Positions 1 to 13,921 of a stretch of 64,000 nucleotides of DNA are shown here, one piece after another. The notes below the pieces were generated by a model. The model had not been told where the DNA came from. It ran no database searches and saw only the letters and a program-made list of their open reading frames with translations. Made by a program: the position numbers and the translations under genes. How positions within the stretch are numbered: the stretch's first letter is position 1; every line of letters begins with the position of its first letter. This DNA comes from Psychroserpens sp. GTDB taxonomy: Bacteria; Bacteroidota; Bacteroidia; Flavobacteriales; Flavobacteriaceae. The stretch is from assembly GCF_017643165.1 (NCBI RefSeq), contig NZ_JAEPNY010000003.1; one strand, given 5' to 3'.

Positions 1-98
1 CTTGTGTTGTAAATGTGTCTTCCAAAAAGGTTTACCGCGCCAACAAATGTTATTCCACATAACACAAGAATTCCAATAATGATGAATGCTTTTTTCAT
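1..98 (-). CDS. Hypothetical protein, N-terminal fragment running off the window edge
   Basis: Minus-strand ATG at 98-96 with an open frame to position 1. It translates to MKKAFIIIGILVLCGITFVGAVNLFGRHIYNT, a hydrophobic signal or TM segment. Product unknown. Confidence 0.3.
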   Translation of the reverse strand, partial: MKKAFIIIGILVLCGITFVGAVNLFGRHIYNT

Positions 99-148
99 TT
101 AGTTAGGTTTATATATCTAACGCATTGAAATTGATTTTCTTATGTCAA

Positions 149-1954
149 TTAATCTTTAACTTTTGAAGCTACGAATGTTCCATTAGGTTGAATGGCCTTA
201 AGCTCTTTTATAGCGCCATTTTCATCTTCAATAAATTCTACTTTAAATCCTTCTAATACTTTAAAATTGAACTTATGTTTCCCTGTTGCTAATAATTCGT
301 ACTCTGGTTGTCCTTCAACAAATAAGTAAAGGACATTTTCATCTTTGATATAGACTTTTATCGTGGTGCCAGCTAAACTGTAGTTACCAACATAGGATTC
401 TAATGTCTCTTTATCTACATCGATTGTATTTGGTGTACGTTTAAAACGCAGAGGATCAACGGTTGGTTCTAGCGTTGCATGTGCCTCAGCAATATCACCC
501 GCTTCATTAGCGTAAAACGTAACTTTTAAGGATTGACCTATAGCTGAAGTGTCGACTTTACCTTCTACAACATCTATGAGCTCAAAAGTATCATAGTGAT
601 AATGATGTAAATACTGGCGATCACCATTTAACTCCGTATAAAGGGTGTCATTTTCGACGATCACATTAAATTCTCCGTATCCAGGGTGACTATACGAACC
701 TGTATAGTCAAGTTTTATATGAGAAGGTCTCGTGTTTTTTACATTTGATTTTTCTGAATCTTCTTTGGCTTCCTCTTGGGCTTTTACAGCTTTGTCAAGA
801 TTTTCTTTATGTTCGGCTGCCCAATCTGTTACATCAACAGCTAACATCCGATCTGCAATTGTGTTTCGAACTAAGCTAGGAACAGCTGATCCATTTTGAT
901 TGGTCAATACGACGATACCAATATTGTCTGTTGGAAAAAATGCAACATTAGCAGAGAACCCATCAATGTTTCCTCCATGTTCCACGCGATAATGACCTTT
1001 ATATGAGGCTAAGAACCATCCATAACCGTAATTCGAAAAATGAACATCCGGATGTTTTTCTCCAGGAACACCTGCTCCAATAATCATTTGAGAACCCATT
1101 GCTTCTTTAATATAATCTTCGGGTATAAGTTGTTCATCATTGAATTTGCCTTTTTGTAACCAAAGGGTAATCCATTTTGTCATATCGTTCACACTACTAT
1201 TGATACTTCCCGCGGGTGACATTCCAGAGATATCATAATAGTCGGTTTTTTCAATCGTTTTATTATCTACTAAATTATAACCGAAAGCCGCGTTGTTATC
1301 GTTTTTCATTCCTTCGATATCTACCTTCGATCGATTCATATCAAGAGGTTTGAAGAATTTTTCTTCAATGTTTTCTTCCCAACTTTTTCCAGTGATTTTT
1401 TCAGTAATTACACCTTGCGCTAGGAACATAAAATTGTTGTAATACCATTGTTGACGCACACCAGTAAATGGTTCTTGATGTTTTACGCGCATCAACAAAC
1501 TGTCTTTGTGTTTGGAAGGGAAAAAGTACCAAGAAGCATCGTGACGCGGCAGACCTGTACTGTGACGCATTAAGTCTTTAATGATAATATTATTATTCAT
1601 ATTATCATTGATAAATTCAAAATCTGGTATATAATCTAGCGGACTATCATCAAAAGATAGTTTTTCTTCACCTCTAAGGATTCCTAAAAGTGAGGATGTA
1701 AATGCTTTGGTTGATGAGCCTATGGCAAATAAGGTATTTGCATCAACAGGTATTTTGTTTTCATAATCTCTATAACCAAATCCCTTAGCATACACGACCT
1801 TGTCTCCTTCAACAACAGCAACGGCAAAGCCTGGAGCTTGTGTAATTTCAAGGATTGAATTCATGGATTTATCGATATTTTTCAATCGTTTGTCATTTTG
1901 AGAAAAAGAAAGTGTGCCTATAAAAAGGAATAGTAATAGCCAGGATGTTTTCAT
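149..1954 (-). CDS. Secreted serine hydrolase, beta-lactamase / PBP-like family, with an extra C-terminal domain
   Basis: N-terminal signal peptide. S-x-x-K motif (GSSTKAF), a YxN-like motif (WYYNNF) and HGG in place of KTG (VEHGGNIDGF), typical of class-C-like esterases and aminopeptidases. About 200 aa of extra C-terminal sequence. Confidence 0.85.
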   Translation of the reverse strand: MKTSWLLLFLFIGTLSFSQNDKRLKNIDKSMNSILEITQAPGFAVAVVEGDKVVYAKGFGYRDYENKIPVDANTLFAIGSSTKAFTSSLLGILRGEEKLSFDDSPLDYIPDFEFINDNMNNNIIIKDLMRHSTGLPRHDASWYFFPSKHKDSLLMRVKHQEPFTGVRQQWYYNNFMFLAQGVITEKITGKSWEENIEEKFFKPLDMNRSKVDIEGMKNDNNAAFGYNLVDNKTIEKTDYYDISGMSPAGSINSSVNDMTKWITLWLQKGKFNDEQLIPEDYIKEAMGSQMIIGAGVPGEKHPDVHFSNYGYGWFLASYKGHYRVEHGGNIDGFSANVAFFPTDNIGIVVLTNQNGSAVPSLVRNTIADRMLAVDVTDWAAEHKENLDKAVKAQEEAKEDSEKSNVKNTRPSHIKLDYTGSYSHPGYGEFNVIVENDTLYTELNGDRQYLHHYHYDTFELIDVVEGKVDTSAIGQSLKVTFYANEAGDIAEAHATLEPTVDPLRFKRTPNTIDVDKETLESYVGNYSLAGTTIKVYIKDENVLYLFVEGQPEYELLATGKHKFNFKVLEGFKVEFIEDENGAIKELKAIQPNGTFVASKVKD

Positions 1955-2152
1955 AATGGTTGGTTTAAATGAATTGATTCAGTTCATTAGTAGTCATTTA
2001 TGGATAGAAGTTACTCATTTTAAACTGAAATTATTAAGATAATTACAATTCATCCATAAAAATTGACGATTTGGTCATTCCCTTTTAGAAATACGCAATT
2101 GCTGATAGATATTTGTCTCATCAATTAAATCGAACAGTTAATTCTAATAATT

Positions 2153-2578
2153 ATGGGAACTTTAGTAAAAATAGTTTTGTTATTCATACTTAGTCAATCA
2201 ATGGTTTTAGCTCAGGAATCAATTACACAAACCATAACGGTAAACATCAATAATCTTGATAATGATAAAGGTGTAGTTTATGTTTCACTATACGATTCTG
2301 AGCATAATTTTTTAAATCAAGGCGTCAGATCGGCTAGTGCAAAAATTGAAAATAACAAATGCAATGTCGTGTTTTCTAATGTACCACAAGGCGTTTATGC
2401 GATTTCATTATATCATGACGAGAATGGTAATAAAAAACTGGATAGTAATTTCTTAGGAATTCCTAAAGAAGATTACGGATGTTCAAATAATGCAAGAGGC
2501 TTTATGGGACCACCAAAATGGAACGATGCCAAATTTGAAGTAAAAAATGAATCTATTGTACAATCTATAACTTTATAA
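2153..2578 (+). CDS. DUF2141-like secreted protein
   Basis: Signal peptide. The motif NFLGIPKEDYGCSNNA and the overall size resemble the DUF2141 family. This assignment is from memory. Confidence 0.65.
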   Translation: MGTLVKIVLLFILSQSMVLAQESITQTITVNINNLDNDKGVVYVSLYDSEHNFLNQGVRSASAKIENNKCNVVFSNVPQGVYAISLYHDENGNKKLDSNFLGIPKEDYGCSNNARGFMGPPKWNDAKFEVKNESIVQSITL

Positions 2579-2582
2579 TATC

Positions 2583-3206
2583 ATGAAACAACTAATCATC
2601 ATCATCATTTTATTTGTATCTGCAGTTGGAACTGCACAAACAAATTTTGAAAAAGGCATGCAAAAAGCCTTCGAATTATGGCAAAATGGCAATGCAGATG
2701 AGGCACAAAATATGTTTGAACGCATCGCTAATGCTGAATCTGAAGAGTGGCTACCTCATTATTACATCGCCCAAATTAATAGTCTTAAGAGCTGGAATGT
2801 AAAAGACGAAGCCGTTCTAAAAGCACAACTTGATAAGGCACAGGAGCACTTAAATTCTGCAATGGCTATTAGTAAGGATAACCCTGAATTAATGGTTATG
2901 CAAGCACAGGTCTTAACCAATTGGGTGGCTTTCGATGGAATGACTTATGGAATGAAATATTCAGCTAAAATTTCTGAATTGTACCGACAAGCCTATGAAT
3001 TGGATCCAAATAATCCTAGAGTTGCATTTGGAAAAGCAGAATGGGGAATGGGAAGTGCTAGATATTTTGGTCAAGACACCACACCATATTGTGAGGAAAT
3101 GGAACGTTCGATAGAACTTTTTACTAACTTTAAACCAGAAAGTGCAATACATCCTGATTGGGGAAAAGAGCGCGCTGAAGAAGTTGTAAAATCTTGTAAA
3201 GAGTAA
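2583..3206 (+). CDS. Secreted helical-repeat (TPR-like) hypothetical protein
   Basis: Signal peptide MKQLIIIIILFVSAVGTAQ. All-helical, Ala/Glu-rich repeats. Lies 4 nt after the previous gene and 3 nt before the kinase. Confidence 0.45.
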   Translation: MKQLIIIIILFVSAVGTAQTNFEKGMQKAFELWQNGNADEAQNMFERIANAESEEWLPHYYIAQINSLKSWNVKDEAVLKAQLDKAQEHLNSAMAISKDNPELMVMQAQVLTNWVAFDGMTYGMKYSAKISELYRQAYELDPNNPRVAFGKAEWGMGSARYFGQDTTPYCEEMERSIELFTNFKPESAIHPDWGKERAEEVVKSCKE

Positions 3207-3209
3207 ATC

Positions 3210-4565
3210 ATGATAAGCAAAGCATTTAAAAATATTGTAGTCACCTTTATCATCGGATGTGCCATATTCGTTGTGGGGAATCTGTTGCAAAATGGTGGAT
3301 TCGAATTCGATTCTGTGACTGATTTTTTAACTGACTTTGCATTTTATCAACTCTATACATTTGTATTAGCATTTATAAATACAACCTTCTTTAATTATAT
3401 GGAGGGACGTCAGTGGAAACAATACGATACAATTAAAAGAATTGTACTCGGAATAGCTGGATCGACAATTCTAACTCTTGCAGGAATCTTTGCCTTAAGA
3501 TTTTGTGTCACGGTATTTTACTACGATGTTCCCTATGAAAAATTCTTAGAGAATGATTCTTGGAGCGGCTATTCATTTGCACTCTGGATAACCCTTACTA
3601 TAGTTTCCATATTTCATATCGCATACTTCTACAACAAGTATCAGAAGAATAAGATTAAAGAACAGAAAGTTATTGCAGGTACAGCTAGTGCCAAGTTTGA
3701 CGCGCTTAAAAACCAACTTGATCCACATTTCTTATTTAATAGTTTGAATGTGTTGACAAGTTTGATCGAGGAAAACCCTAGAAATGCACAACGTTTCACA
3801 ACGTCACTTTCGAAGGTGTATCGCTATGTATTAGAGCAAAAGAATAAAGATTTAGTAACCGTAGATGAAGAGCTAGATTTTGCAAGAACTTATATGTCTT
3901 TGCTAAAAATGAGATTTGAAGATAGTATCATTTTTGAAATACCTGATCGTGCTTCAAATCCTGAAAGTAGAGTTGTTCCTTTATCATTACAATTGCTTTT
4001 GGAAAATGCAGTAAAACATAATATGGTGACGAGTAGTAAACCTTTGCATATTAAAATTTTTGAGCAAAATGGAATGCTAGTCGTAGAGAATAATTTACAG
4101 CCAAAACAAATCGTAAAAAAGAGTAGCGGAGTTGGTTTAGAAAATATCAAACAACGCTACAACTTATTATCAAATAGAAAGGTATCAATCAATCAACAAG
4201 CAAAAAGTTTTGCAGTTGCAATTCCTATGCTTACAAAACAAGTATCAATCATGAAAGCAATCGAACCAAAATCAAAATTTGATGACAGATATGTCAGAGC
4301 ACGTAAACGTGTAGAAGAGTTAAAAGAGTTTTATTATAGCTTATTGTCCTATTTTATTGTGATTCCATTTTTAATTTTTATCTGGTATCGCTATACACCG
4401 CATACCATACAGTGGTTCTGGTTCCCAATGTTAGGTTGGGGTCTCGGATTAGCATTCCATGCCTATAAGGTCTATGTAAATGATGGCATGTTAGGATCTA
4501 ACTGGGAAAAACGTCAGATCGAGAAATACATGCGCGAAGAAGAAGAACAAGAACGATGGAATTAA
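3210..4565 (+). CDS. LytS/YehU-type sensor histidine kinase fused to a C-terminal 2TM module
   Basis: Four or five N-terminal TM helices. His_kinase box LKNQLDPHFLFNSLNVL, N-box LLENAVKHN and G-box GVGLENIKQRY. The last ~95 aa (about 4280-4565) repeat the pattern of the three downstream 2TM proteins. Confidence 0.85.
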   Translation: MISKAFKNIVVTFIIGCAIFVVGNLLQNGGFEFDSVTDFLTDFAFYQLYTFVLAFINTTFFNYMEGRQWKQYDTIKRIVLGIAGSTILTLAGIFALRFCVTVFYYDVPYEKFLENDSWSGYSFALWITLTIVSIFHIAYFYNKYQKNKIKEQKVIAGTASAKFDALKNQLDPHFLFNSLNVLTSLIEENPRNAQRFTTSLSKVYRYVLEQKNKDLVTVDEELDFARTYMSLLKMRFEDSIIFEIPDRASNPESRVVPLSLQLLLENAVKHNMVTSSKPLHIKIFEQNGMLVVENNLQPKQIVKKSSGVGLENIKQRYNLLSNRKVSINQQAKSFAVAIPMLTKQVSIMKAIEPKSKFDDRYVRARKRVEELKEFYYSLLSYFIVIPFLIFIWYRYTPHTIQWFWFPMLGWGLGLAFHAYKVYVNDGMLGSNWEKRQIEKYMREEEEQERWN

Positions 4566-4575
4566 TTCAGGACTG

Positions 4576-4899
4576 ATGAAAATGAATGCTGAAGAACTAA
4601 AATACATAAAGGCCAAATCAAGAGTAGAAAAGCTCAAGTCAATTTATAGACATATCGCAGTTTTTTTAATTACGATTTCTGTGTTGTTTTTATTAATGTC
4701 ATTTTTTCCAGGCTCCAAAGATTCTATGTTCTATTACATATTGAGTTATACTACTGATGTGACTTGGATTGTATGGGGCTTTGTTATTGTCTTGCATGTA
4801 ATTATTGCTTTTGGACTTGATAAGATATTAGGACGCAATTGGGAGGTAGAAAAGATTTCGAAATTCATGGAGAATGAGGATGATTCATCTGTTTACTAA
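4576..4899 (+). CDS. 2TM domain-containing protein, paralogue 1
   Basis: Basic helix YIKAKSRVEKLKSIYRHI, two TM helices, then LGRNWEVEKISKFM and an acidic tail. Same pattern as the kinase C-terminus. Confidence 0.8.
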   Translation: MKMNAEELKYIKAKSRVEKLKSIYRHIAVFLITISVLFLLMSFFPGSKDSMFYYILSYTTDVTWIVWGFVIVLHVIIAFGLDKILGRNWEVEKISKFMENEDDSSVY

Positions 4900-4911
4900 A
4901 AGTAGAACAAA

Positions 4912-5226
4912 ATGAAGGAATTTACAGAAGACTATAAGTATGAAAGGGCGAAATCGAAGATGCAAAATTTAAAAGCCTTTTATATTCATTTTACTGTTTA
5001 TGTAATTGTGAACACTATAATTAGTATTGCCAAGGTTATTAGAAATGTAAATAATGGAGAAACTTTTAATGAAGCCATATTTGATTTTGCGACTATTGGA
5101 TTATGGACAATTTGGGGAGTAGGTATTGCATTTCACGCGTTTTCAGTTTATGGCTTAGATTTCTTTCTCGGCAAAAATTGGGAAACCAAACAATTAGAAA
5201 AATATATGAATCAAGACGACCGTTAA
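4912..5226 (+). CDS. 2TM domain-containing protein, paralogue 2
   Basis: YERAKSKMQNLKAFYIHF, two TM helices with WGVGIAFH, then LGKNWETKQLEKYM. Confidence 0.8.
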   Translation: MKEFTEDYKYERAKSKMQNLKAFYIHFTVYVIVNTIISIAKVIRNVNNGETFNEAIFDFATIGLWTIWGVGIAFHAFSVYGLDFFLGKNWETKQLEKYMNQDDR

Positions 5227-5250
5227 AAATGCGGTTAAAAAAATAATATT

Positions 5251-5598
5251 ATGGAACGTGGAGTAGAACCTTACGGAAGTGAACAAAGACAAAAAGATTT
5301 TGAACGCGAAGACGCCTATTTAAGAGCACAGAAGAAAGTAAAGAGCTTAGTTGGATTCTATTGGCATCTGGCATCTTATGTGATTGTGAATATTTTTATC
5401 ATTCTATTGATCGTTACGAATGGTGGTCGATTTTGGAGTTTTGGAACATTCGCAACAGCATTTTTCTGGGGCATTGGTCTGTTCTTTCATTTTATTGGTG
5501 TTTTCGGTCCTGACTTTTTATTCGGGAAAGACTGGGAACAACGAAAGATCAGAGAATATATGGATAAAGACAAAGACAGCTACAATCGATTTGAATAA
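5251..5598 (+). CDS. 2TM domain-containing protein, paralogue 3
   Basis: YLRAQKKVKSLVGFYWHL, two TM helices with WGIGLFFH, then FGKDWEQRKIREYM. Confidence 0.8.
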   Translation: MERGVEPYGSEQRQKDFEREDAYLRAQKKVKSLVGFYWHLASYVIVNIFIILLIVTNGGRFWSFGTFATAFFWGIGLFFHFIGVFGPDFLFGKDWEQRKIREYMDKDKDSYNRFE

Positions 5599-6068
5599 TG
5601 CTCACAGAAATCATAGATAGTTCGGTTGGATGGTTCCACTTTATCACTGCAATTTTGGCCATGGTATCGGGAACAATTGTACTGCTTAATAAGAAAGGTA
5701 CGACATTTCATAAACGCGTAGGTTATACCTATGTACAATCAATGATTTTTATGAATGTTAGTTCATTTTTCATTATCAATTTTGACGGTTTTAGCATCTT
5801 TCATTTCTTTGCCATTATCAGTTTGCTCAGTATAATTGGTGGTATGCTCCCTACGATTAAAAAGAAAAATAACTGGTTGGCATATCATTTTTACTTTATG
5901 AATTGGTCTGTTGTTGGTCTTTATTGTGCGTTTTGGGCGGAAGTTGGAACGCGATTCGTTAATAATATGAAAGACTTTTGGTGGATGGTCGCTCTAGCGA
6001 CATTTGTTACAGCATTCATTGGAAGTATAATTATAAATAAACAAGCGAAAAAATTAAACTTAAAATAA
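5598..6068 (+). CDS. Polytopic membrane protein (DUF2306-like)
   Basis: Four predicted TM helices. The motif HKRVGYTY after TM1 resembles DUF2306. The start overlaps the previous stop by 1 nt (TAATG). Confidence 0.5.
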   Translation: MLTEIIDSSVGWFHFITAILAMVSGTIVLLNKKGTTFHKRVGYTYVQSMIFMNVSSFFIINFDGFSIFHFFAIISLLSIIGGMLPTIKKKNNWLAYHFYFMNWSVVGLYCAFWAEVGTRFVNNMKDFWWMVALATFVTAFIGSIIINKQAKKLNLK

Positions 6069-6824
6069 ATGAATATCATAATCATAGAAGACGAGAAGCC
6101 TTCGGCAAGACGATTACAACGAATGTTGGCCGAATTACAAATGGAAGCTCAAACATTATTGCATTCGGTTGAAGAATCAATAGAATGGTTTCAAAATAAT
6201 CCGCATCCAGATCTCATATTTTTAGATATTCAATTAAGTGATGGTTTATCGTTCGAAATCTTCGATGCCATTAATATTAAATCGGCTGTAATTTTTACAA
6301 CAGCGTATGACGAATATGCCTTACAAGCATTTAAACTAAATAGTATTGATTATTTATTGAAACCGATTGATGAGGATGAGCTCGAGAGAGCAGTTTCAGA
6401 ATATAAAGATAGACTACCTCAAAATCAGTCGGTCACACTAGATTTTAATGATATTAGAAGGCTTTTAGTCAATCCAATTGAACGCGAATATAAAAAGCGA
6501 TTTTCAGTTAAAGTAGGTCAACATTTAAAGCTTATCAACATAGATGATATTGAATGTTTTTACAGCGAAAATAAAGGGACTTATGCCTTTACAAATGAAG
6601 GTAGAAATTATTTACTCGATACAACATTAGAACAACTAGAAGACGAGTTAGAGCCACATAAATTCTTTAGAATTAGTAGAAAATTCTTTGTAAATATTAA
6701 TGCTATTGATGACATGGTTAGTTATACAAATTCACGACTTCAAATTAAATTGAATACCTATAAAGAACAGGATGTAATAGTGGCTAGAGAACGCGTGAAA
6801 GATTTCAAGAATTGGTTGGCTTAG
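6069..6824 (+). CDS. LytR/AlgR-family response regulator (receiver plus LytTR DNA-binding domain)
   Basis: Receiver domain with IIIEDE and FLDIQLSDG. The C-terminal LytTR pattern includes FFRISRKFFVNINAI. It starts directly after the previous stop. Confidence 0.9.
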   Translation: MNIIIIEDEKPSARRLQRMLAELQMEAQTLLHSVEESIEWFQNNPHPDLIFLDIQLSDGLSFEIFDAINIKSAVIFTTAYDEYALQAFKLNSIDYLLKPIDEDELERAVSEYKDRLPQNQSVTLDFNDIRRLLVNPIEREYKKRFSVKVGQHLKLINIDDIECFYSENKGTYAFTNEGRNYLLDTTLEQLEDELEPHKFFRISRKFFVNINAIDDMVSYTNSRLQIKLNTYKEQDVIVARERVKDFKNWLA

Positions 6825-7261
6825 AATATATCAAAAATATCGCCCAGCGAATCACCTATACCATCGAATAGGTCGTCGGCACCAGATAGAAGACCCGAAA
6901 ATCCAACATCAAAAAACAACTCTAACAGAAGAAGACTTTCCAGATCTTTTAACCAATAGGTGTCAGATTTTTTCTTAGCTTCTTTTTGCCATTCTTTGTA
7001 TTCTTTCTCTACTTTTGGTTCAATTACCATTGGCTTATTCGTGGCTGCAGTTTTAAGCATTTCGTCATAGCGTTGTCTTTTCTTAGGATTTGATAGGACA
7101 TCGAATGCCTCGACGAGTTCATCGAATCGAGCTCTCGCACCCTCCGATTTATTTTTGTCAGGATGATATAGCGCTATCTGAGTTCTAAAAGCTTTTTTAA
7201 TCGTTTCTAGATCGGTATTCTGGTCTACACCCAATAAACTATAATATTGTTTTAATTCCAT
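6821..7261 (-). CDS. J-domain (DnaJ-like) protein with an acidic-hydrophobic C-terminal tail
   Basis: YYSLLGV followed by the HPD motif (ALYHPDKNK). There is no Gly/Phe or zinc-finger region. The tail reads DDLFDGIGDSLGDIFDIF. Confidence 0.85.
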   Translation of the reverse strand: MELKQYYSLLGVDQNTDLETIKKAFRTQIALYHPDKNKSEGARARFDELVEAFDVLSNPKKRQRYDEMLKTAATNKPMVIEPKVEKEYKEWQKEAKKKSDTYWLKDLESLLLLELFFDVGFSGLLSGADDLFDGIGDSLGDIFDIF

Positions 7262-7265
7262 GGGA

Positions 7266-8291
7266 TTACATCGGATTTGAAAGTTTGGATTCTATTTGAG
7301 AAACGAATCTTTGATGATCATCAACAAAGAAGTAAAGTTCTCGATATGTTTTCGCCTTTCCATATAGGAAAGCCAAGCGATGGGGAGATTTTAATCGAAT
7401 TACGATATTGGAATTTTCAAGACTTCCAAGTAACGATATGGTCTTGGTGTTTTTTGAAGATTTATAATCATCTGCATGAGCAATCGCTATAGATTCTATA
7501 GCAGAATAAGAAATACTAGTTTCACTCAGCATTCCAAATCGGAGTACTAATTCGTTTTCTAAAATTTGAATTGGACGTTTTGGGACAGATCTGATTATAC
7601 CAATGAGCTGTAAAGCTGAATAGATACTTAATCCAGTGAGAATCCATGCTAGAGTCGAACTCCATTTACTGGCTAATATATGGATACTAACCATCTCAAT
7701 TGCAACTACAAAAATTACTGCGACCAATGTTGATAAGATACCAGAGCCTTTATAATTTGAAAATTCGTTGGCTTTCAGTTCGACCTTTTTAAAATTAAAA
7801 AAACCATAATAGATCAGCGCAATTTCATTTGCGACTAGTTTGGCAGCAGTCTTTGGAAAAAGAGATGCAGAGGTTTCATTTAAAATGGTAAAGAAATCTT
7901 GACCTTTCTTGGCAGCGGCCTTATAAGATTTAATTGCCTTGGTAACTTTATATATGACTATGCTAATCACGCTGAGTTCCACAATTGGAATCAGCCAGGT
8001 TTTCGCAAGCGATAGCATATCTTGATTTGCTTCAGGAATTGCATACGATGCAATAACGATACAGGCGATGAGAAAAGGCGCTATAGTCAATTTCGAAACA
8101 TTAGTTTTTCTAATCAATAGAAAATAAATGATCGGAATCGTTAAAATAAAATCTATGGTAATAAAGGTTGATAATTGACTTGCATTGGCACTAAATATTT
8201 GAGATTGTAATAAGGCTATTAGGCTCAAAATGAGTAATAAAGGTATGCCAAAAGCGAAAAGGTATGGTCGAATCTGGATCGATTTTGTCAT
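7266..8291 (-). CDS. Polytopic membrane protein with a C-terminal bacterial-PH-like domain
   Basis: About 7 TM helices followed by a ~110 aa soluble domain. The ATG at 8291 (MTKSIQIRPYLF) is preferred over the TTG at 8327 used by the ORF track. Confidence 0.55.
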   Translation of the reverse strand: MTKSIQIRPYLFAFGIPLLLILSLIALLQSQIFSANASQLSTFITIDFILTIPIIYFLLIRKTNVSKLTIAPFLIACIVIASYAIPEANQDMLSLAKTWLIPIVELSVISIVIYKVTKAIKSYKAAAKKGQDFFTILNETSASLFPKTAAKLVANEIALIYYGFFNFKKVELKANEFSNYKGSGILSTLVAVIFVVAIEMVSIHILASKWSSTLAWILTGLSIYSALQLIGIIRSVPKRPIQILENELVLRFGMLSETSISYSAIESIAIAHADDYKSSKNTKTISLLGSLENSNIVIRLKSPHRLAFLYGKAKTYRELYFFVDDHQRFVSQIESKLSNPM

Positions 8292-8441
8292 ATGCCAAGT
8301 ACGTTTAATTTCACCAATTTGACGCAAATTTCGATTATTTGTTACGAAAAACGCCCCTTAAATCTTAAATAATGACCACTTTAGCCTGATTTTTTGCTCT
8401 TCCACTCACATTAACTTAGTTTCAACTCAAAATCAGCTATT

Positions 8442-10046
8442 ATGAAATTCAGAGTTCAATTTTTTCTACTGTGCTTTTTTGCTTGTACGTTACTCACTGC
8501 TCAAGACTGGAAAGTTTATCCATACACACCAGCCGGACAAGTTGCATTTCCGGTGGATGAAGGGCGCCATGCAGCAGAACCAATAGAATGGTGGTATACT
8601 GCAGGACATGTAGTTGGACAGACTTCTGGAAAAAGTTATAGTTTTATGTATACTTTTTTTCATTATCCTCAATCTACATTTGATGGCTTTAGGATTTTGA
8701 ATATTACTGACGACGATACTGGTACGTTCTATCAAGATGTTTTGCCACTTAATTATACAACACTCTCAACTACAGGGTTCGATATTGAAGCCAGTGTGTT
8801 TTTAGCAGGTATAGAAACGTGGCGTAACAAGGTTGATGGTGGAAACCAACCTATACCTTTTGAATATGAGCTTTTTGCAAGTACAGCGCAAGCAGGTCTT
8901 GATATAGACTTGGTTACAACCAAACGACCGTTAATACTTGGTGATGATGGTTTTTTGAATCAAGGTATCGTAAATTATACCTATTATTTTTCTCAAACTG
9001 CCAATACCGTATCAGGAAACCTTACATTCAATGGAGTTACTGAACCAGTTGTAGGGACAGCATGGATCGATAGACAATACGGAAACTTTAATCCATTAAC
9101 AGGTGAAAAGTATGAATGGTTTAGTATGCAATTATCGAATGGAATGGATCTGAATCTTTGGAATATTTTCACACCAGATCGCCTCATACCAGACGATGAA
9201 AAGTATAAGATATTATCTGCATATGTGGATGAAAGTACCCAATATACGACCGATGATTTTCAAATTGAACGACTCGCGTATAACTGCATGCCAGATGAGG
9301 TAATGTGCTATTCAAAACAATGGCGATTAACGTCGGTTGTAAATAATATTGACCTAGTAATTTCTACGCTACATGATAATACAGAGGTGCAGTTGCCATT
9401 TCGATTTTTTGAAGGTGCAACTTCGGTATCAGGTACAGTAAATGGAGTTGCTGTCACAGGTATTGGCTTTGCCGAGTTATTGCATTCTTATGAAGATCCA
9501 GCTATAACAGTTACATCACCAATCGATGGAACCTACGATCCGTCAAATGCTATAACTTGGGATCTCGATAACCCAGACGATGGAAGACCTGTTTTTTATG
9601 ATCTTGAATATAGTGATGATAATCAAAATTCATTTAATTCTATCGTAACCGATTTAACTAGTCCATCGTACCTTTGGAGTACGACTCCCTTAATAAACGG
9701 TGATGAAGTGATTTTTAGAATTACCTCACGATCGGTTGATGGTGTTCTAAGTTCTACAACATTAAGCCCAGTAGCAACCTTGGCTACATTGTCATTAACC
9801 GAATTAGATCTCGGGAAATTAAAAAGTTATCCAAATCCAGTAACTAACGTATTAACCGTAAATCTTGAAACTATAAGAAGCGGAACATACAATATTGTTG
9901 ATCTTAAAGGCAGCATTATTAGCGACTCCGAGTTTTTAGATCGTGACATTCTGGAAATTGAAACTTCAGTGCTTCAATCAGGAATCTACATTCTCAATAT
10001 ACAAACGGATAGCGGTGTATTTAATTTACGTTTTATTAAACAGTAA
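8442..10046 (+). CDS. Secreted AttH/CrtC-like (lipocalin-like hydratase fold) protein with a T9SS C-terminal sorting domain
   Basis: Signal peptide. EPIEWWYTAGHV and AWIDRQYGNF are typical of the AttH / hydroxyneurosporene-synthase-like family. The C-terminus (SYPNPVTNVLTV ... GIYILNIQTDSG) is a T9SS sorting domain. Confidence 0.7.
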   Translation: MKFRVQFFLLCFFACTLLTAQDWKVYPYTPAGQVAFPVDEGRHAAEPIEWWYTAGHVVGQTSGKSYSFMYTFFHYPQSTFDGFRILNITDDDTGTFYQDVLPLNYTTLSTTGFDIEASVFLAGIETWRNKVDGGNQPIPFEYELFASTAQAGLDIDLVTTKRPLILGDDGFLNQGIVNYTYYFSQTANTVSGNLTFNGVTEPVVGTAWIDRQYGNFNPLTGEKYEWFSMQLSNGMDLNLWNIFTPDRLIPDDEKYKILSAYVDESTQYTTDDFQIERLAYNCMPDEVMCYSKQWRLTSVVNNIDLVISTLHDNTEVQLPFRFFEGATSVSGTVNGVAVTGIGFAELLHSYEDPAITVTSPIDGTYDPSNAITWDLDNPDDGRPVFYDLEYSDDNQNSFNSIVTDLTSPSYLWSTTPLINGDEVIFRITSRSVDGVLSSTTLSPVATLATLSLTELDLGKLKSYPNPVTNVLTVNLETIRSGTYNIVDLKGSIISDSEFLDRDILEIETSVLQSGIYILNIQTDSGVFNLRFIKQ

Positions 10047-10047
10047 A

Positions 10048-11235
10048 TTATTTTTCAATACGATTATCATCAAAAGATGATGGTAATAGATTAGGGATAA
10101 GCTTAGCGAATAGTGGTAATAATATAGCACCTCCTGGCAACATAAAAATCGCAAGACTAGGTATGGATTTTAGAATATCAAGTAATTGAGATTGCATTAG
10201 TTTTTGTTCTTCCTTACTTAAATCTGTGTGCGTAGATTTACTGATCAAAAGCATTAGATCTTTGCTTTGACGTAATTCTTTTACAAGACGTTTGCTGTTT
10301 CTCCTGATTAGTTTATTTACCAATTGCGAGGAGTTTTCATAAAAGTTATTTATTGGATTGGTTTGCTGAAATAGCATAACACTTTTCTTGTGCTTTGTGT
10401 GAAAGTTAGAAACACAAAGAATCGAATCATGTACTTCAGAAATATTGATTTCTAATACTCTAGATAGCTGTTTTAAAAATTGGTATTCAGATTTTTCTAA
10501 AATTTCATCATCCCAGATTGATAAACACATGAGATCAATTAAATATTTTTTCTCTTGCGTGTTTATATGATATTCAATGTCCAATATTAAATTCTCTTCC
10601 AGTTTTGAATCTTCCTCAATAAATGATGTTGAAGTTTCTATGACCTCAATAATTTCTTGATCATAATCGGTAATTTTACTCTTTGCATTGAGCGATTGAT
10701 ATAAGGTTCCAATTATGATACGTTCAAGATTGGCGGCATAAGATTTGGGGTCGATATCAGCACTTAAATATTGATCATAAGTTAGAACATCTACGAAAAG
10801 CAGTGAATTTGTAATTGATTTGTTAAAGTTACGTGTAAGTAGATTGTCATCAATTTGAACGCGATCATGAATAAGTCGTTCTAGTAAAGACGCATCGCTT
10901 TTTCCAATCATAAAACGATCCCATAATGAGAGATCACTCACTTCCAGAGATTTGTAATATTTTAAAAGTGAGCTGATAAATGCGTCTCTCTTGAAATTTG
11001 GATGCCGAAATCGATAGATGTGATAAAGTCCGGTGAGAAGGTTAACTTTAGCCAATTCATCTTCCGAATATCGATGGATTTGCTCTACCTTTTTTGTAAT
11101 CGCAACGTTGACGCCATAAATAAATCCGAAATCCTTTAAACACTTGTATAATTGATCATAGTTCTCATAAGGCATTCCTTTTTTTGAGATCTGAGAACAA
11201 AATTTAGCGATCCAACCGTGAGTAGAAGGGTTCAT
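10048..11235 (-). CDS. LETM1-like domain protein
   Basis: The C-terminal stretch IFMLPGGAILLPLFAKLIPNLLPSSF closely matches the LETM1 signature (LFPNMLPSTF). Confidence 0.5.
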   Translation of the reverse strand: MNPSTHGWIAKFCSQISKKGMPYENYDQLYKCLKDFGFIYGVNVAITKKVEQIHRYSEDELAKVNLLTGLYHIYRFRHPNFKRDAFISSLLKYYKSLEVSDLSLWDRFMIGKSDASLLERLIHDRVQIDDNLLTRNFNKSITNSLLFVDVLTYDQYLSADIDPKSYAANLERIIIGTLYQSLNAKSKITDYDQEIIEVIETSTSFIEEDSKLEENLILDIEYHINTQEKKYLIDLMCLSIWDDEILEKSEYQFLKQLSRVLEINISEVHDSILCVSNFHTKHKKSVMLFQQTNPINNFYENSSQLVNKLIRRNSKRLVKELRQSKDLMLLISKSTHTDLSKEEQKLMQSQLLDILKSIPSLAIFMLPGGAILLPLFAKLIPNLLPSSFDDNRIEK

Positions 11236-11291
11236 ACAATTAGACTATTGTAATAACAAAGTTAATTTTATTTGATTTACGGAAAAATAAA

Positions 11292-11321
11292 AAAAGCATT
11301 CTACCGAAGTAAAATGCTTTT
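11292..11321 (-). terminator. Rho-independent terminator after the SOD-like gene
   Basis: AAAAGCATT / AATGCTTTT stem, followed on the minus strand by a T-run (the A-run at 11285-11295 on plus). Confidence 0.6.
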
Positions 11322-11342
11322 CAATGTTTTTTTAACAAGAAA

Positions 11343-11900
11343 TTATTCAATAGTTCCACATGCCAAATGAATTGGCTTGTCGGTAGTACCTTGATTCACA
11401 ATTATCGTTTTACCTAAAATGTTTTTCGATACATCATCACATCCAATACACCAGCTATCAGAGACTTTTGTTATTTGTGCCTTACCTTCCGCGTTAGCAA
11501 CAAGTTTACCAATATCATCTTGATGATATGACGTCGAAGCATTACTCTTATCAGATGAACAGTCTCCGGATTCGTAAATATGAAGTGCGTGCTCTCCTTC
11601 TGTTAAACCAGTAATAATAGCCAACATGGTTACAACACCAGATTCTTGAGAGAAAATGATTGAACCAGTAACGCCGCTTTCATTGTTTGATTCTAATTTA
11701 ACAGTAACGGTTCGTTTTTCATCAAAATAATCTGGGCGATTGCTCGCCGGTTCTTTATTTTCTCTAGTTGTTTCTTTTACTTCAGATTCAACTTCGGTTG
11801 TTGGTTCAGAAATTTCTGGTGTTTCTTCTTTTTTATCAGATTTACAAGCAGCACTTAAGCATAATGCTAGAAATGCTAGATAAAATATGGATCTTTTCAT
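11343..11900 (-). CDS. Cu/Zn superoxide-dismutase-like lipoprotein with incomplete metal ligands
   Basis: Lipoprotein signal MKRSIFYLAFLALCLSAAC. SodC-like GEHALHIYESGDCS and a C-terminal ACGTIE. The zinc loop is shortened, and Asn replaces the His of the hVHxGxDD strand (IIVNQGTTD). ATG at 11900 is preferred. Confidence 0.7.
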   Translation of the reverse strand: MKRSIFYLAFLALCLSAACKSDKKEETPEISEPTTEVESEVKETTRENKEPASNRPDYFDEKRTVTVKLESNNESGVTGSIIFSQESGVVTMLAIITGLTEGEHALHIYESGDCSSDKSNASTSYHQDDIGKLVANAEGKAQITKVSDSWCIGCDDVSKNILGKTIIVNQGTTDKPIHLACGTIE

Positions 11901-11977
11901 TGATTTAAGGGTTTGTGTTAATCGGAGTTGAAAGATAATCATTATTTAATATCATCCGAATTTTATACGTTTAAATT

Positions 11978-12469
11978 CTATCTATTAGATTTTAACCACA
12001 ATTTTTGGTCAGTAACACCGCGTTTAAGGTTCTCGGTAAGTATTAGGGACTTGTCAATGCGCGTTTGAGATGATTTATAACGCAGAATCGCATAAATTAT
12101 GCTACGCTGTTTTCCTGGCGTTAAATTCTCGAAAATAATGTAAGCATCGTGATCACTTAAGAGTACAGCTTCTAATTCTTCTGGCATATCTACACCATAC
12201 TTTGATTGGTCCTCAAAAAGTTGCATCGTGAAATAATCATTCATAAATACACCCAAAGCTTTTTGCTTTTCTTTACTGAACATCAACACGCATAGTCCAT
12301 TTTTTTTTGCGGTTAAAGCGGCATAAAATACAATTTGCTGGTCATGGTAACTGGCATGTACTTTAACACGCTTTTGTTTTTCTGATAAAAACAAGTGCGC
12401 AACAGTATCGGGAATTATAACCGCATGAGAATGTGCTAAGCTCACTTCAAATGGATCACTCTGTAGCAT
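11978..12469 (-). CDS. YdeI/OmpD-associated family protein (DUF1905-like N-terminus)
   Basis: Size and the C-terminal pattern LTPGKQRSIIYAILRYKSSQTRIDK fit this family. Confidence 0.6.
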   Translation of the reverse strand: MLQSDPFEVSLAHSHAVIIPDTVAHLFLSEKQKRVKVHASYHDQQIVFYAALTAKKNGLCVLMFSKEKQKALGVFMNDYFTMQLFEDQSKYGVDMPEELEAVLLSDHDAYIIFENLTPGKQRSIIYAILRYKSSQTRIDKSLILTENLKRGVTDQKLWLKSNR

Positions 12470-12556: not shown

Positions 12557-13921
12557 ATGTGCAATTCATTAGTCAATAAGTATAATGTGGCTGGTCCGCG
12601 TTATACAAGTTACCCAACTGTACCGTATTGGGATAACAACTCATTTTCATTAAAACGATGGAAAGAATCATTAGCTGTTTCTTTTGATGAGAGCAATACG
12701 TCTGAAGGAATAAGTATTTATATCCATTTACCGTTTTGCGAAAGTATGTGTACGTTTTGTGGCTGCAATAAACGAATAACAAAGCGCCATGAGGTGGAGA
12801 TGCCTTATATCAAGGCCGTACTAAAGGAGTGGGATTTGTACTGCGAATTATTGAATGGAAGACCAGTTATTAAGGAACTTCATTTAGGTGGTGGAACACC
12901 AACATTTTTTTCTGCTGAGAATTTAGAGTATCTAATCAATGGGATTACACGTAAAGCACGCCTCAGTAAAGATTACGAGTTTAGTTTTGAAGGTCATCCT
13001 AATAATACAACTCGGGAACAACTTCAATCATTATATGATTTAGGATTTAGACGTGTTAGTTTTGGTGTTCAAGACTATAATGAGACGGTTCAAAAGGCTA
13101 TTAATAGAATTCAACCCTTTGAAAAAGTTAAGGCTGTGACAGACGCAGCGCGTGAGATTGGATACACCTCTGTTGGGCATGATATTATATTTGGCTTACC
13201 ATTTCAAACCAAATCACACATAGAAACTACAATAGCTTTGACTAAAGCATTAATGCCAGATCGAATCGCATTTTACAGTTATGCTCATGTGCCTTGGTTG
13301 AAAGGAAATGGACAACGTGGCTATAGAGATGAAGATGTTCCGAATGGTGATGTGAAACGCGAGCAATATGAATATGGAAAAGCATTATTGAGTGCTGCAG
13401 GCTATCATGAGATAGGAATGGATCATTTCGCCTTACAAACGGATAGTCTCTATAAAGCAATGGAGTCTAAATCGTTACATCGCAACTTTATGGGCTATAC
13501 AGCTTCCAAAACTCAAGCTATGATTGGCTTAGGTGTTTCTTCCATTAGTGATAGTTGGTATGGCTTTGCTCAAAATGTAAAAGGTATAGAAGAGTATTAT
13601 CACCTTGTAAACCAAGGGATTATTCCGGTGTATCGCGGACATATTTTAACTCCGGAAGATCTCATTGTAAGACAACATATATTGAATTTAATGTGTCATT
13701 TCGAAACGAACTGGAGTGACCGATCGTTATATATTGAAGAACTTAAGGACATCGTATTTAAACTTCATGAAATGGAGTCTGATGGCTTGGTTACCTTTGA
13801 AAAGCATGGCTTGAAAATTACCGAAAAAGGTAGACCATTCGTACGAAATGTATGCATGGCATTCGATGTTCTTTTACAGCGAAAACAACCAAGTACACGA
13901 TTGTTTTCGATGACCGTTTAA
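12557..13921 (+). CDS. hemN: Oxygen-independent coproporphyrinogen III oxidase (radical SAM)
   Basis: GPRYTSYPT N-terminus. Radical SAM CxxxCxxC motif (CESMCTFCGC). GGGTPTF. The length of ~454 aa is typical of HemN. Confidence 0.92.
   Translation: MCNSLVNKYNVAGPRYTSYPTVPYWDNNSFSLKRWKESLAVSFDESNTSEGISIYIHLPFCESMCTFCGCNKRITKRHEVEMPYIKAVLKEWDLYCELLNGRPVIKELHLGGGTPTFFSAENLEYLINGITRKARLSKDYEFSFEGHPNNTTREQLQSLYDLGFRRVSFGVQDYNETVQKAINRIQPFEKVKAVTDAAREIGYTSVGHDIIFGLPFQTKSHIETTIALTKALMPDRIAFYSYAHVPWLKGNGQRGYRDEDVPNGDVKREQYEYGKALLSAAGYHEIGMDHFALQTDSLYKAMESKSLHRNFMGYTASKTQAMIGLGVSSISDSWYGFAQNVKGIEEYYHLVNQGIIPVYRGHILTPEDLIVRQHILNLMCHFETNWSDRSLYIEELKDIVFKLHEMESDGLVTFEKHGLKITEKGRPFVRNVCMAFDVLLQRKQPSTRLFSMTV

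Follow-up and report, generated by a model that had tools for sequence, protein, structure and literature searches.

A sensor kinase/LytTR operon with 2TM hairpin proteins and a HusA-like gene in Psychroserpens, and its relatives in Flavobacteriaceae

Eight consecutive plus-strand genes were found in the list of open reading frames (ORFs) between positions 2153 and 6824 of a 64,000-nucleotide stretch of Psychroserpens sp. (assembly GCF_017643165.1, contig NZ_JAEPNY010000003.1), referred to below as the window. They encode a DUF2141 protein, a relative of the haemophore HusA, a PF06580 sensor kinase that ends in a 2TM (PF13239) hairpin, three free 2TM proteins, a DUF2306 membrane protein and a response regulator with a LytTR DNA-binding domain (Table 1). 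In kind, this is an intramembrane-sensing system of the PF06580/LytTR type with accessory proteins, attached to Hus-like uptake genes. New features are the exclusive tie between PF13239 and the kinase, the placement of this module behind the catalytic domain, the ordered classes of paralogues, and the predicted operator together with the Hus connection. As the best overall explanation, towards which we lean without great confidence, we propose an autoregulated kinase/LytTR circuit that serves a Hus-like tetrapyrrole uptake and in which the 2TM proteins act as modulators.

The cluster reads as a single transcription unit of eight genes. Successive gaps of 4, 3, 10, 12, 24, −1 and 0 nt separate the genes, and a generic scan revealed no excess of terminator-like or promoter-like sequences inside the cluster; the prediction of an operon follows from these short gaps (−1 to 24 nt) and from the lack of an internal terminator excess. 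An earlier note on this DNA, made from the letters and ORFs, had given the gap values exactly but had counted nine genes, whereas the ORF list, the note's own enumeration and its seven gaps all give eight. Likewise, the five small membrane-protein genes of that note are in fact four (three 2TM genes and the DUF2306 gene), while its four copies of the 2TM module are all present, one fused and three stand-alone, each above the PF13239 gathering score of 24.8 bits. The profile matches that it anticipated for DUF2141, PF06580, PF13239, DUF2306 and LytTR were all recovered, the Pfam assignments used here being those above gathering scores. No further 2TM, kinase or LytTR copy is encoded elsewhere in the 64 kb.

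The arrangement was then compared among related loci. A genome scan returned at least 515 loci encoding a relative, and the best 80, one per species, were analysed; with 12 further contigs and 80 metagenome loci, the sample comprised about 170 related loci. The metagenome loci were retrieved with a narrower 2TM alignment; a very diverse 2TM alignment gave only 12 matches in the profile search. The best 80 genomes share a core in which a 2TM-fused kinase, one to three free 2TM genes and a regulator with receiver (REC) and LytTR domains follow one another; one, two and three free genes were counted in 13, 35 and 28 of these loci, respectively. The metagenome loci keep this layout with one to eight free copies, and so do distant contigs in which the kinase is 47% and the regulator 69% identical to those of the window. 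Kinase identity is 79–82% to Psychroserpens proteins and exceeds 72% across several genera of Flavobacteriaceae. In every context examined, the free 2TM genes are flanked by a 2TM-fused PF06580 kinase on one side and a REC-LytTR regulator on the other, an arrangement that is far from chance. The conservation of neighbourhood raised in the earlier note was thus borne out for the fused kinase, the free 2TM genes and the LytTR gene, but not for the DUF2306 gene, which separates the 2TM genes from the regulator in no more than about 4–5 of the 80 genomes and a few metagenome loci. Given this rarity, DUF2306 is an occasional insertion outside the conserved core. Among genome-type loci, a HusA-like gene lies directly upstream of the kinase in 81 out of 87, and a DUF2141 gene adjoins the kinase operon in 38 out of 85.

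A second conserved feature is a direct repeat located ~95 nt upstream of the operon. With a position weight matrix (PWM) built from orthologous sites, this box scores 35.0 bits; the runner-up in the 64 kb reaches 0.9 bits, and shuffled sequences do not exceed 12 bits. A corresponding box precedes the first ATG of the operon by ~92–118 nt in 86 out of 86 loci. Across the 1.1 Mb of these loci, sites above 14 bits occur on the coding strand only and in only three places: before the operon, before a husB-like gene if one is present and, in one distant clade, in the spacer of ~100 nt that separates the first free 2TM gene from the kinase. The exact form ACAATTC-N14-ACAATTC was detected in 26 loci, a single time per locus and invariably before the operon. 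Because the PWM was trained on the 86 loci, it was checked on independently fetched metagenome loci; of those of at least 6 kb, 44 out of 45 contain the box, with 48 sites on the plus strand and 0 on the minus strand. In Haliscomenobacter hydrossis (CP002691.1; locus L088, 4715–4750), a perfect 13-bp repeat, TCTACACCTCAGT, is present twice with a 21-bp period, ~110 nt upstream of a husB-husA-kinase-LytTR cluster. The upstream alignment has the consensus TTACAATTCaTC...TtACAATTCGGT, followed by a T-rich stretch and then by GATATTTG, which resembles the Bacteroidota −7 motif TAnnTTTG and may act as the promoter element. The geometry of the repeat is that of known LytTR operators, such as those of AgrA, ComE and BtsR. 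With a conserved LytTR-type repeat upstream, the operon is probably a target of its own regulator, and we regard its activation by the regulator through this repeat as very likely on comparative sequence grounds. An antisense near-copy of the box, TCCAATTC-N13-TACAATTC, with one mismatch (2976–3004, minus strand, within the husA-like gene) was dismissed as a probable chance match, as it has a PWM score of −2 and is absent from the other loci.

The 2TM modules themselves point to the kinase as their partner. A profile made from the four modules of the window retrieved 1800 clusters at 50% identity among 1.84 billion representatives. The best 150 family representatives all match PF13239, and among them PF06580, carried by 12, is the only credible fusion partner. 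Two modules were found in 24 of the 150, as tandem 2TM-2TM proteins of ~200 aa or as kinases with two hairpins, so that kinase-2TM-2TM and 2TM-2TM fusions both exist in nature. The main evidence that the free 2TM proteins work with the kinase comes from such fusions and from the strict co-location of the genes. In this dataset, PF13239 hairpins are confined to Flavobacteriaceae and metagenome contigs. The earlier statement that no function has been assigned to the family holds for the literature searched, where nothing relevant to PF13239 was found and the matches concerned glycine-zipper or Plasmodium '2TM' proteins.

The 281 modules of 87 loci can be grouped into orthologous classes that follow one another in the order F-(B or F')-C-(D/E). 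Class F, the fused copy, is present in 81 loci and class C in 79 of the 87, and the two co-occur in 79; a class B module or an F-like duplicate is optional after F, as is D or E after C. In the window, the order is F, the lineage-specific singleton 2TMa, b2 (2TMb) and C (2TMc). 2TMa forms a cluster of its own among the 281 modules, with a best identity to any other locus of at most 41%, and class b2 is small (6 loci). Positions conserved across all classes map to the flanking helices on the cytoplasmic side and to helix ends, with the motifs Y..A...V...FY before transmembrane (TM) helix 1, WG at the start of TM2 and G..WE..K....M after TM2. Hydropathy and charge distribution predict a hairpin with both termini in the cytoplasm (N-in/C-in), and the AlphaFold2 (AF2) secondary structure, taken from the low-confidence kinase model, is a helix-turn-helix followed by a C-terminal helix. 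The free classes keep intramembrane His and Asn residues (H39, N47 and H80 in 2TMc). A bis-His haem bridge from the fused to the free hairpin was considered and downgraded, since the positions concerned are occupied by S, I/P and often Q in class F.

The kinase consists of four TM helices, the PF06580 dimerisation/His domain, a short-lid ATPase-like domain and the C-terminal 2TM hairpin. The outside loops between the N-terminal helices, whose charges fit the positive-inside rule, measure only ~16 and ~20 residues, in agreement with the earlier claim that the protein has no extracytoplasmic domain. Its designation as a LytS-type kinase is right as to PF06580; it is not a LytS orthologue, given that the sensor region lacks the 5TM-LYT domain, and neither GAF nor any other Pfam sensor domain was found there. 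The phosphoacceptor H173, in the motif LDPHFLFN, is invariant in 14 orthologues, the N-box N266 and the G2-like SGVGLEN are present and invariant, and the phosphorelay residues of both proteins (H173 and N266 in the kinase and D53 in the regulator) are intact. Judging from these motifs, the 2TM-fused protein probably has histidine kinase activity. Across genomes, the cytoplasmic core of the kinase is the best conserved part of the locus (median identity 88%), compared with 53% for the N-terminal TM bundle, 63% for the fused hairpin and 84% for the regulator. The GanS kinase (6swj) is its only sequence match in the PDB, and GanS (6swk) is also the best structural match of the AF2 model, followed by other kinases, although this model is of low confidence, with a predicted local distance difference test (pLDDT) score of 64. 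For the same reason, the model was not accepted as evidence that the fused hairpin packs on the N-terminal bundle. The short lid also occurs in an ordinary Bacteroidota PF06580 kinase without 2TM, and it is therefore not specific to 2TM kinases. The regulator comes closest to the NCBIfam models BtsR and LytR; both scores are below the cut-offs, and it is thus not an equivalog of either. The extreme C-terminus of kinase orthologues, as of tandem 2TM proteins (A1; P0125, P0130, P0135 and P0148), often reads [KR]-W-[NEK] after an acidic tail, and the motif in the window kinase is ERWN.

Gene 2 had been described as a TPR-like secreted protein, and both its TPR repeats and its signal peptide are real, but its family had been missed. 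Compared with all PDB sequences, it matches only HusA (PG_2227; 6bqs/6crl) with an E-value of 5.5e-9 over residues 45–206. Its AF2 model (pLDDT 93.4) has an all-helical TPR-like fold with 6bqs as the top Foldseek match (TM-scores 0.78/0.80), and generic TPR proteins follow well below. By sequence and fold, gene 2 is a HusA-family haemophore-like protein, and the operon does therefore encode a candidate periplasmic ligand-binding protein. HusA of Porphyromonas gingivalis binds haem and metal-free porphyrins and passes them to the TonB-dependent receptor HusB (PMC6173696, PMC12094164), and a HusA-like protein of Flavobacterium (FqPBP) binds protoporphyrin IX (PPIX), Zn-PPIX and hemin in vitro, in a preprint that does not discuss genomic context (bioRxiv 10.64898/2026.04.07.716877). 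In BLASTP searches, gene 2 gave E-values of 1e-11 with the HusA orthologue of P. macacae and 1e-28 with a homologue from Haliscomenobacter. One caveat is that its signal peptide is of type I and not of the lipoprotein type.

The surroundings of related genes extend this link. A protein of ~720 aa with CarboxypepD_reg and Plug domains, a full-length HusB homologue (26% identity, 2e-53), is encoded before the operon in 19 out of 87 loci. In P. macacae, the locus comprises husD (a 199-aa membrane protein), husC (HTH_34), husB and husA, and on a Chitinophagales-like contig, husB and husA are accompanied by a 185-aa membrane protein and an HTH_34 protein. Neither HusC nor HusD of P. macacae resembles the proteins of the window or matches the 2TM model; the idea that HusD is a relative of 2TM was discarded, as HusD and HusD-like proteins gave zero match to that model. 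In Haliscomenobacter, husB and husA are followed by a PF06580 kinase without any 2TM module and a LytTR regulator, 41% (kinase core) and 47% identical to their counterparts in the window. This gene order suggests that the kinase/LytTR pair is an old partner of Hus genes to which the 2TM hairpins were added later, and the absence of 2TM there suggests that the addition was dispensable for the ancestral circuit. The divergently oriented neighbours of the Haliscomenobacter cluster include MbnP and a MauG-type peroxidase.

Under the explanation proposed above, the phosphorylated regulator would bind the repeat at 2042–2077 and activate the whole operon and, in relatives, also husB and a separate 2TM-regulator unit where these have a box. 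A tetrapyrrole or similar ligand would be bound by the HusA-like protein, perhaps also by the DUF2141 protein. That a tetrapyrrole (haem, porphyrin) or a comparable hydrophobic ligand is taken up or handled under the control of the circuit seems to us an evenly balanced proposition; the tetrapyrrole theme derives from the HusA-family gene 2 and from the orthologous kinase and regulator joined to husB-husA in a different bacterial class. The link between kinase and hairpins is seen indirectly, as fusions, strict co-occurrence and ordered classes of paralogues. With the fused hairpin placed after it, the ATPase domain would be anchored in the membrane at both ends; the universal class C copy (2TMc) and the variable extra paralogues may assemble with this hairpin in the inner membrane and thereby set the balance between kinase and phosphatase. 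Such an assembly of free and fused hairpins, with modulation of the kinase as its effect, is a serious candidate, although we hold it with slightly more doubt than belief. The free 2TM copies would themselves be induced, which makes them possible feedback modulators or co-sensors. A bolder version, which we consider very unlikely, casts the PF13239 hairpins as membrane-embedded tetrapyrrole sensors that switch the kinase from the C-terminal side of its catalytic domain: H39, N47 and H80 of 2TMc would capture haem or porphyrin from a HusA/HusB-like route, and ligand-dependent docking on the His-poor kinase hairpin would move the tethered ATPase domain. If true, this would be a new coupling of in-bilayer ligand binding to a histidine kinase.

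Several observations weigh against the proposed circuit, and some of them favour other explanations. As to the operator, the second core of the window box is degenerate (GACGATTT), and in the window by itself the simple box pattern does not reach significance (3 matches versus 1.84 expected), so that the case for the box rests on its comparative conservation. As to the hairpins, the polar TM residues of the free classes (H26/N34) are missing from class F, which has Ser, Ile/Pro and His or Gln at the positions of H39, N47 and H80 of 2TMc; this fits docking, but also free proteins with a job of their own. The latter is the core of the main rival, which we judge rather improbable: the free 2TM proteins would form the system's output; as an oligomer in the inner membrane, they would bind, store or hand on the imported ligand or shield the membrane from it, and the fused hairpin would plug into this oligomer only to read its occupancy, comparable with co-sensing in BceAB-BceS and DcuB-DcuS. 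Since the box occurs in the 64 kb only before the operon, the co-transcribed genes are the only visible regulon; the free 2TM genes of one clade have their own box, their number rises to 8, the His and Asn residues in TM helices belong to the free and not to the fused class, and Hus-type loci otherwise encode zero inner-membrane components. A hairpin of ~100 residues with two TM helices is, however, unlike known transporters and gave no transport-related Pfam match, the Hus loci of Haliscomenobacter and Porphyromonas do without any 2TM gene, and the flanking helices on the cytoplasmic side, not the membrane core, hold the universally conserved residues.

Two lesser rivals question the kinase and the Hus link. 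The kinase-like protein could be dead, or a phosphatase or scaffold, with the regulator sequestered at the membrane and 2TM acting as the inhibitor. The protein gave no match to HATPase_c of Pfam, even at E=10, its G1/lid segment is ~24 residues shorter than that of GanS, with the G1 box and ATP lid missing, and one database source calls an orthologue 'sensor, no kinase domain'. There is also a precedent in the LytTR regulatory systems HdrRM and BrsRM, where a small membrane protein inhibits the LytTR regulator (PMC6193735). We nevertheless find this explanation highly improbable: H173, the N-box and the G2-like box are invariant in a cytoplasmic core of 88% median identity, the receiver domain of the regulator is complete and keeps D53, a short lid is common to ordinary Bacteroidota PF06580 kinases, and the best match of the low-confidence model, GanS, is a true kinase. 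The other lesser rival, doubtful but deserving of some weight, holds that the Hus link is incidental and that the circuit senses the general state of the envelope or membrane, with the DUF2141 and HusA-like genes as interchangeable cargo. DUF2141 is indeed the commonest upstream partner in metagenome loci, being the sole one, without a HusA-like gene, in 25 out of 40, and a few of these loci have neither gene beside the kinase. Moreover, the residues L123, V124, W130 and Y164, implicated in porphyrin binding by HusA (PMC12094164), align to F, D, M and G in gene 2, no husB-like gene was found in the 64-kb window, and Hus mutants of P. gingivalis show little defect in haem uptake (PMC12094164). 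Opposed to this, every adjacent husB-like gene has the box in front of it, orthologues of the kinase and regulator in another bacterial class accompany husB-husA and have a repeat of identical geometry, nearly all genome-type loci carry a HusA-like gene next to the kinase, and a flavobacterial homologue binds porphyrins in vitro (bioRxiv 10.64898/2026.04.07.716877).

Compared with LytS/LytTR systems (BtsS/BtsR, YpdA/YpdB and LytS/LytR, and the GanS domain 6swk), the operon has in common a PF06580 domain with the PHFLFN histidine, an adjacent REC-LytTR regulator, a direct-repeat site with halves about two helical turns apart (here a predicted operator) and neighbouring membrane or transport genes as (here predicted) targets. 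It differs in its four-TM sensor without the Pfam 5TM-LYT or GAF domain, in an ATPase domain without G1 box and lid, in the second membrane anchor that PF13239 provides after this domain, and in the one to eight free hairpin genes between kinase and regulator. HdrRM and BrsRM of Streptococcus mutans also combine a LytTR regulator with a small membrane protein and positive autoregulation (predicted here), but their membrane proteins are unrelated in sequence to those of the operon. The receiver domain and the cognate kinase set the latter apart, and it is therefore not a LytTR regulatory system of the HdrRM type.

With LiaFSR, SaePQRS, WalKR-YycHI, BceRS-BceAB and MgrB-PhoQ, the operon shares a kinase that lacks an extracytoplasmic domain. 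As there, small membrane proteins and secreted proteins are encoded in the same (here predicted) autoregulated operon, whose induction allows feedback. Unlike in these systems, the accessory module has its homologue in the kinase itself, as a fused domain, is located C-terminal to the catalytic domain and comes in several ordered paralogous classes; no sequence relationship of 2TM to LiaF, SaeQ, YycH/I or MgrB was found. The Hus locus of P. gingivalis is similar in its HusA, to which gene 2 is homologous, in a dedicated regulator and membrane protein encoded alongside and, as far as relatives of the operon are concerned, in an upstream HusB homologue under the same box. There, however, the regulator is HusC, which is HTH_34/MarR-like, and the membrane protein is the 199-aa HusD, both unrelated to the kinase, LytTR regulator and 2TM proteins found here. 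HusA is described as a lipoprotein, in contrast to gene 2 with its type I signal peptide, the ligand-contact residues are not conserved and husB is missing from the window. Without HusC and HusD and, in the window, HusB, this is not a Hus operon in the strict sense.

Through these comparisons, PF13239, a family with at least 1800 clusters at the 50% identity level, is connected exclusively with a single kinase lineage and with a defined cis-element, and the paralogue classes and candidate residues make its role directly testable. HusA had been presented as a speciality of Porphyromonas; HusA- and HusB-like genes are also present in marine Flavobacteriaceae and in Saprospiraceae, Chitinophagaceae-like and Cytophagaceae-like genomes, and Hus-type genes are governed by at least three different regulatory modules. 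For the abundant marine flavobacteria, the circuit proposed here would be a first model, predicted operator included, of how tetrapyrrole acquisition is regulated, and a kinase catalytic domain anchored in the membrane on both sides would be mechanistically unusual.

Table 1. Genes, modules and predicted regulatory elements of the operon, with positions in the window.
Feature	Position	Strand	Basis
LytTR-type direct repeat ATTACAATTCATCCATAAAAATTGACGATTTGGTCA, two ACAATTC-like cores, 21-bp period	2042..2077	+	PWM from orthologous sites
Conserved GATATTTG element	2108..2115	+	Aligned in nearly all upstream regions; 37 nt before ATG
Secreted DUF2141 protein, 141 aa, Sec signal peptide	2153..2578	+	PF09912 2.8e-37; N-terminal hydrophobic segment
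HusA-family haemophore-like protein (gene 2), 207 aa, Cys 170 and 205	2583..3206	+	TPR repeats (Pfam); PDB 6bqs match
Sensor kinase, 451 aa	3210..4565	+	His_kinase PF06580 8.9e-26; C-terminal 2TM PF13239
Kinase-fused 2TM module, residues 363-442, class F	4296..4535	+	PF13239 1.2e-26, 93.0 bits
Free 2TM protein a (2TMa), 107 aa	4576..4899	+	PF13239 4.8e-15, 55.8 bits
Free 2TM protein b (2TMb), 104 aa, class b2	4912..5226	+	PF13239 1.4e-19, 70.3 bits
Free 2TM protein c (2TMc), 115 aa, class C	5251..5598	+	PF13239 1.3e-26, 92.9 bits
DUF2306 membrane protein, 156 aa	5598..6068	+	PF10067 9.3e-11
Response regulator, 251 aa: receiver (D53) and LytTR DNA-binding domain	6069..6824	+	PF00072 and PF04397

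A sigma-70 promoter scan was uninformative (25 sites versus 27.7 expected), Rfam gave zero family matches across positions 1–12000, no NCBIfam model exists for the 2TM, DUF2141 and DUF2306 proteins, and no functional literature on DUF2141 was found.

On the upstream side, the operon is preceded by a gene on the minus strand (149–1954) for a beta-lactamase-family hydrolase. Downstream, a 146-aa J-domain (DnaJ) protein with a hydrophobic C-terminal segment is encoded convergently (6821–7261, minus strand); its stop codon overlaps that of the regulator by 4 nt, leaving no space for an intervening terminator. A secreted protein with CrtC-type and Lipocalin_9 domains and a type IX sorting tail (8442–10046, plus strand) is found near the operon in only 6 other loci. 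The following gene (10048–11235, minus strand), whose product is a membrane protein of 395 aa that matches LETM1_RBD, accompanies the operon in 67 out of 92 loci; in the simplest loci it stands convergent directly after the regulator, and it has no operator box. About 6 kb downstream of the operon, a radical-SAM/HemN_C gene (12557–13921, plus strand), for a coproporphyrinogen oxidase or HemW-like protein, adjoins Sod_Cu (11343–11942) and Usp genes, and HemN lies within 6 kb of the operon in 7 other loci. The proximity of this tetrapyrrole gene is suggestive, but it may be plain synteny.

Related loci show further variation. The slot between the last 2TM gene and the regulator, occupied by DUF2306 in the window, holds an Amidohydro_1 gene in locus L091 (2615–3754) and ORFs of ~378 aa without annotation in L023, L031 and L061, and it seems to tolerate cargo genes. 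The largest expansion of free 2TM genes, eight in a row from kinase to regulator, is found in metagenome contig Ga0209712_10007119 (L145). In Neotamlana nanhaiensis (NZ_JTDV01000010.1), a 13.7-kb locus is present twice with 100% identity, ~189 kb apart (L052, 229346–243038; L054, 40451–54143), owing either to a recent large duplication or to an assembly artefact. Finally, a second kinase/LytTR pair without 2TM follows the first pair in L123, L124 and L162, and a weaker operator-like site (~20 bits) between both pairs in L123, L124 and probably L162 hints at cross-regulation.

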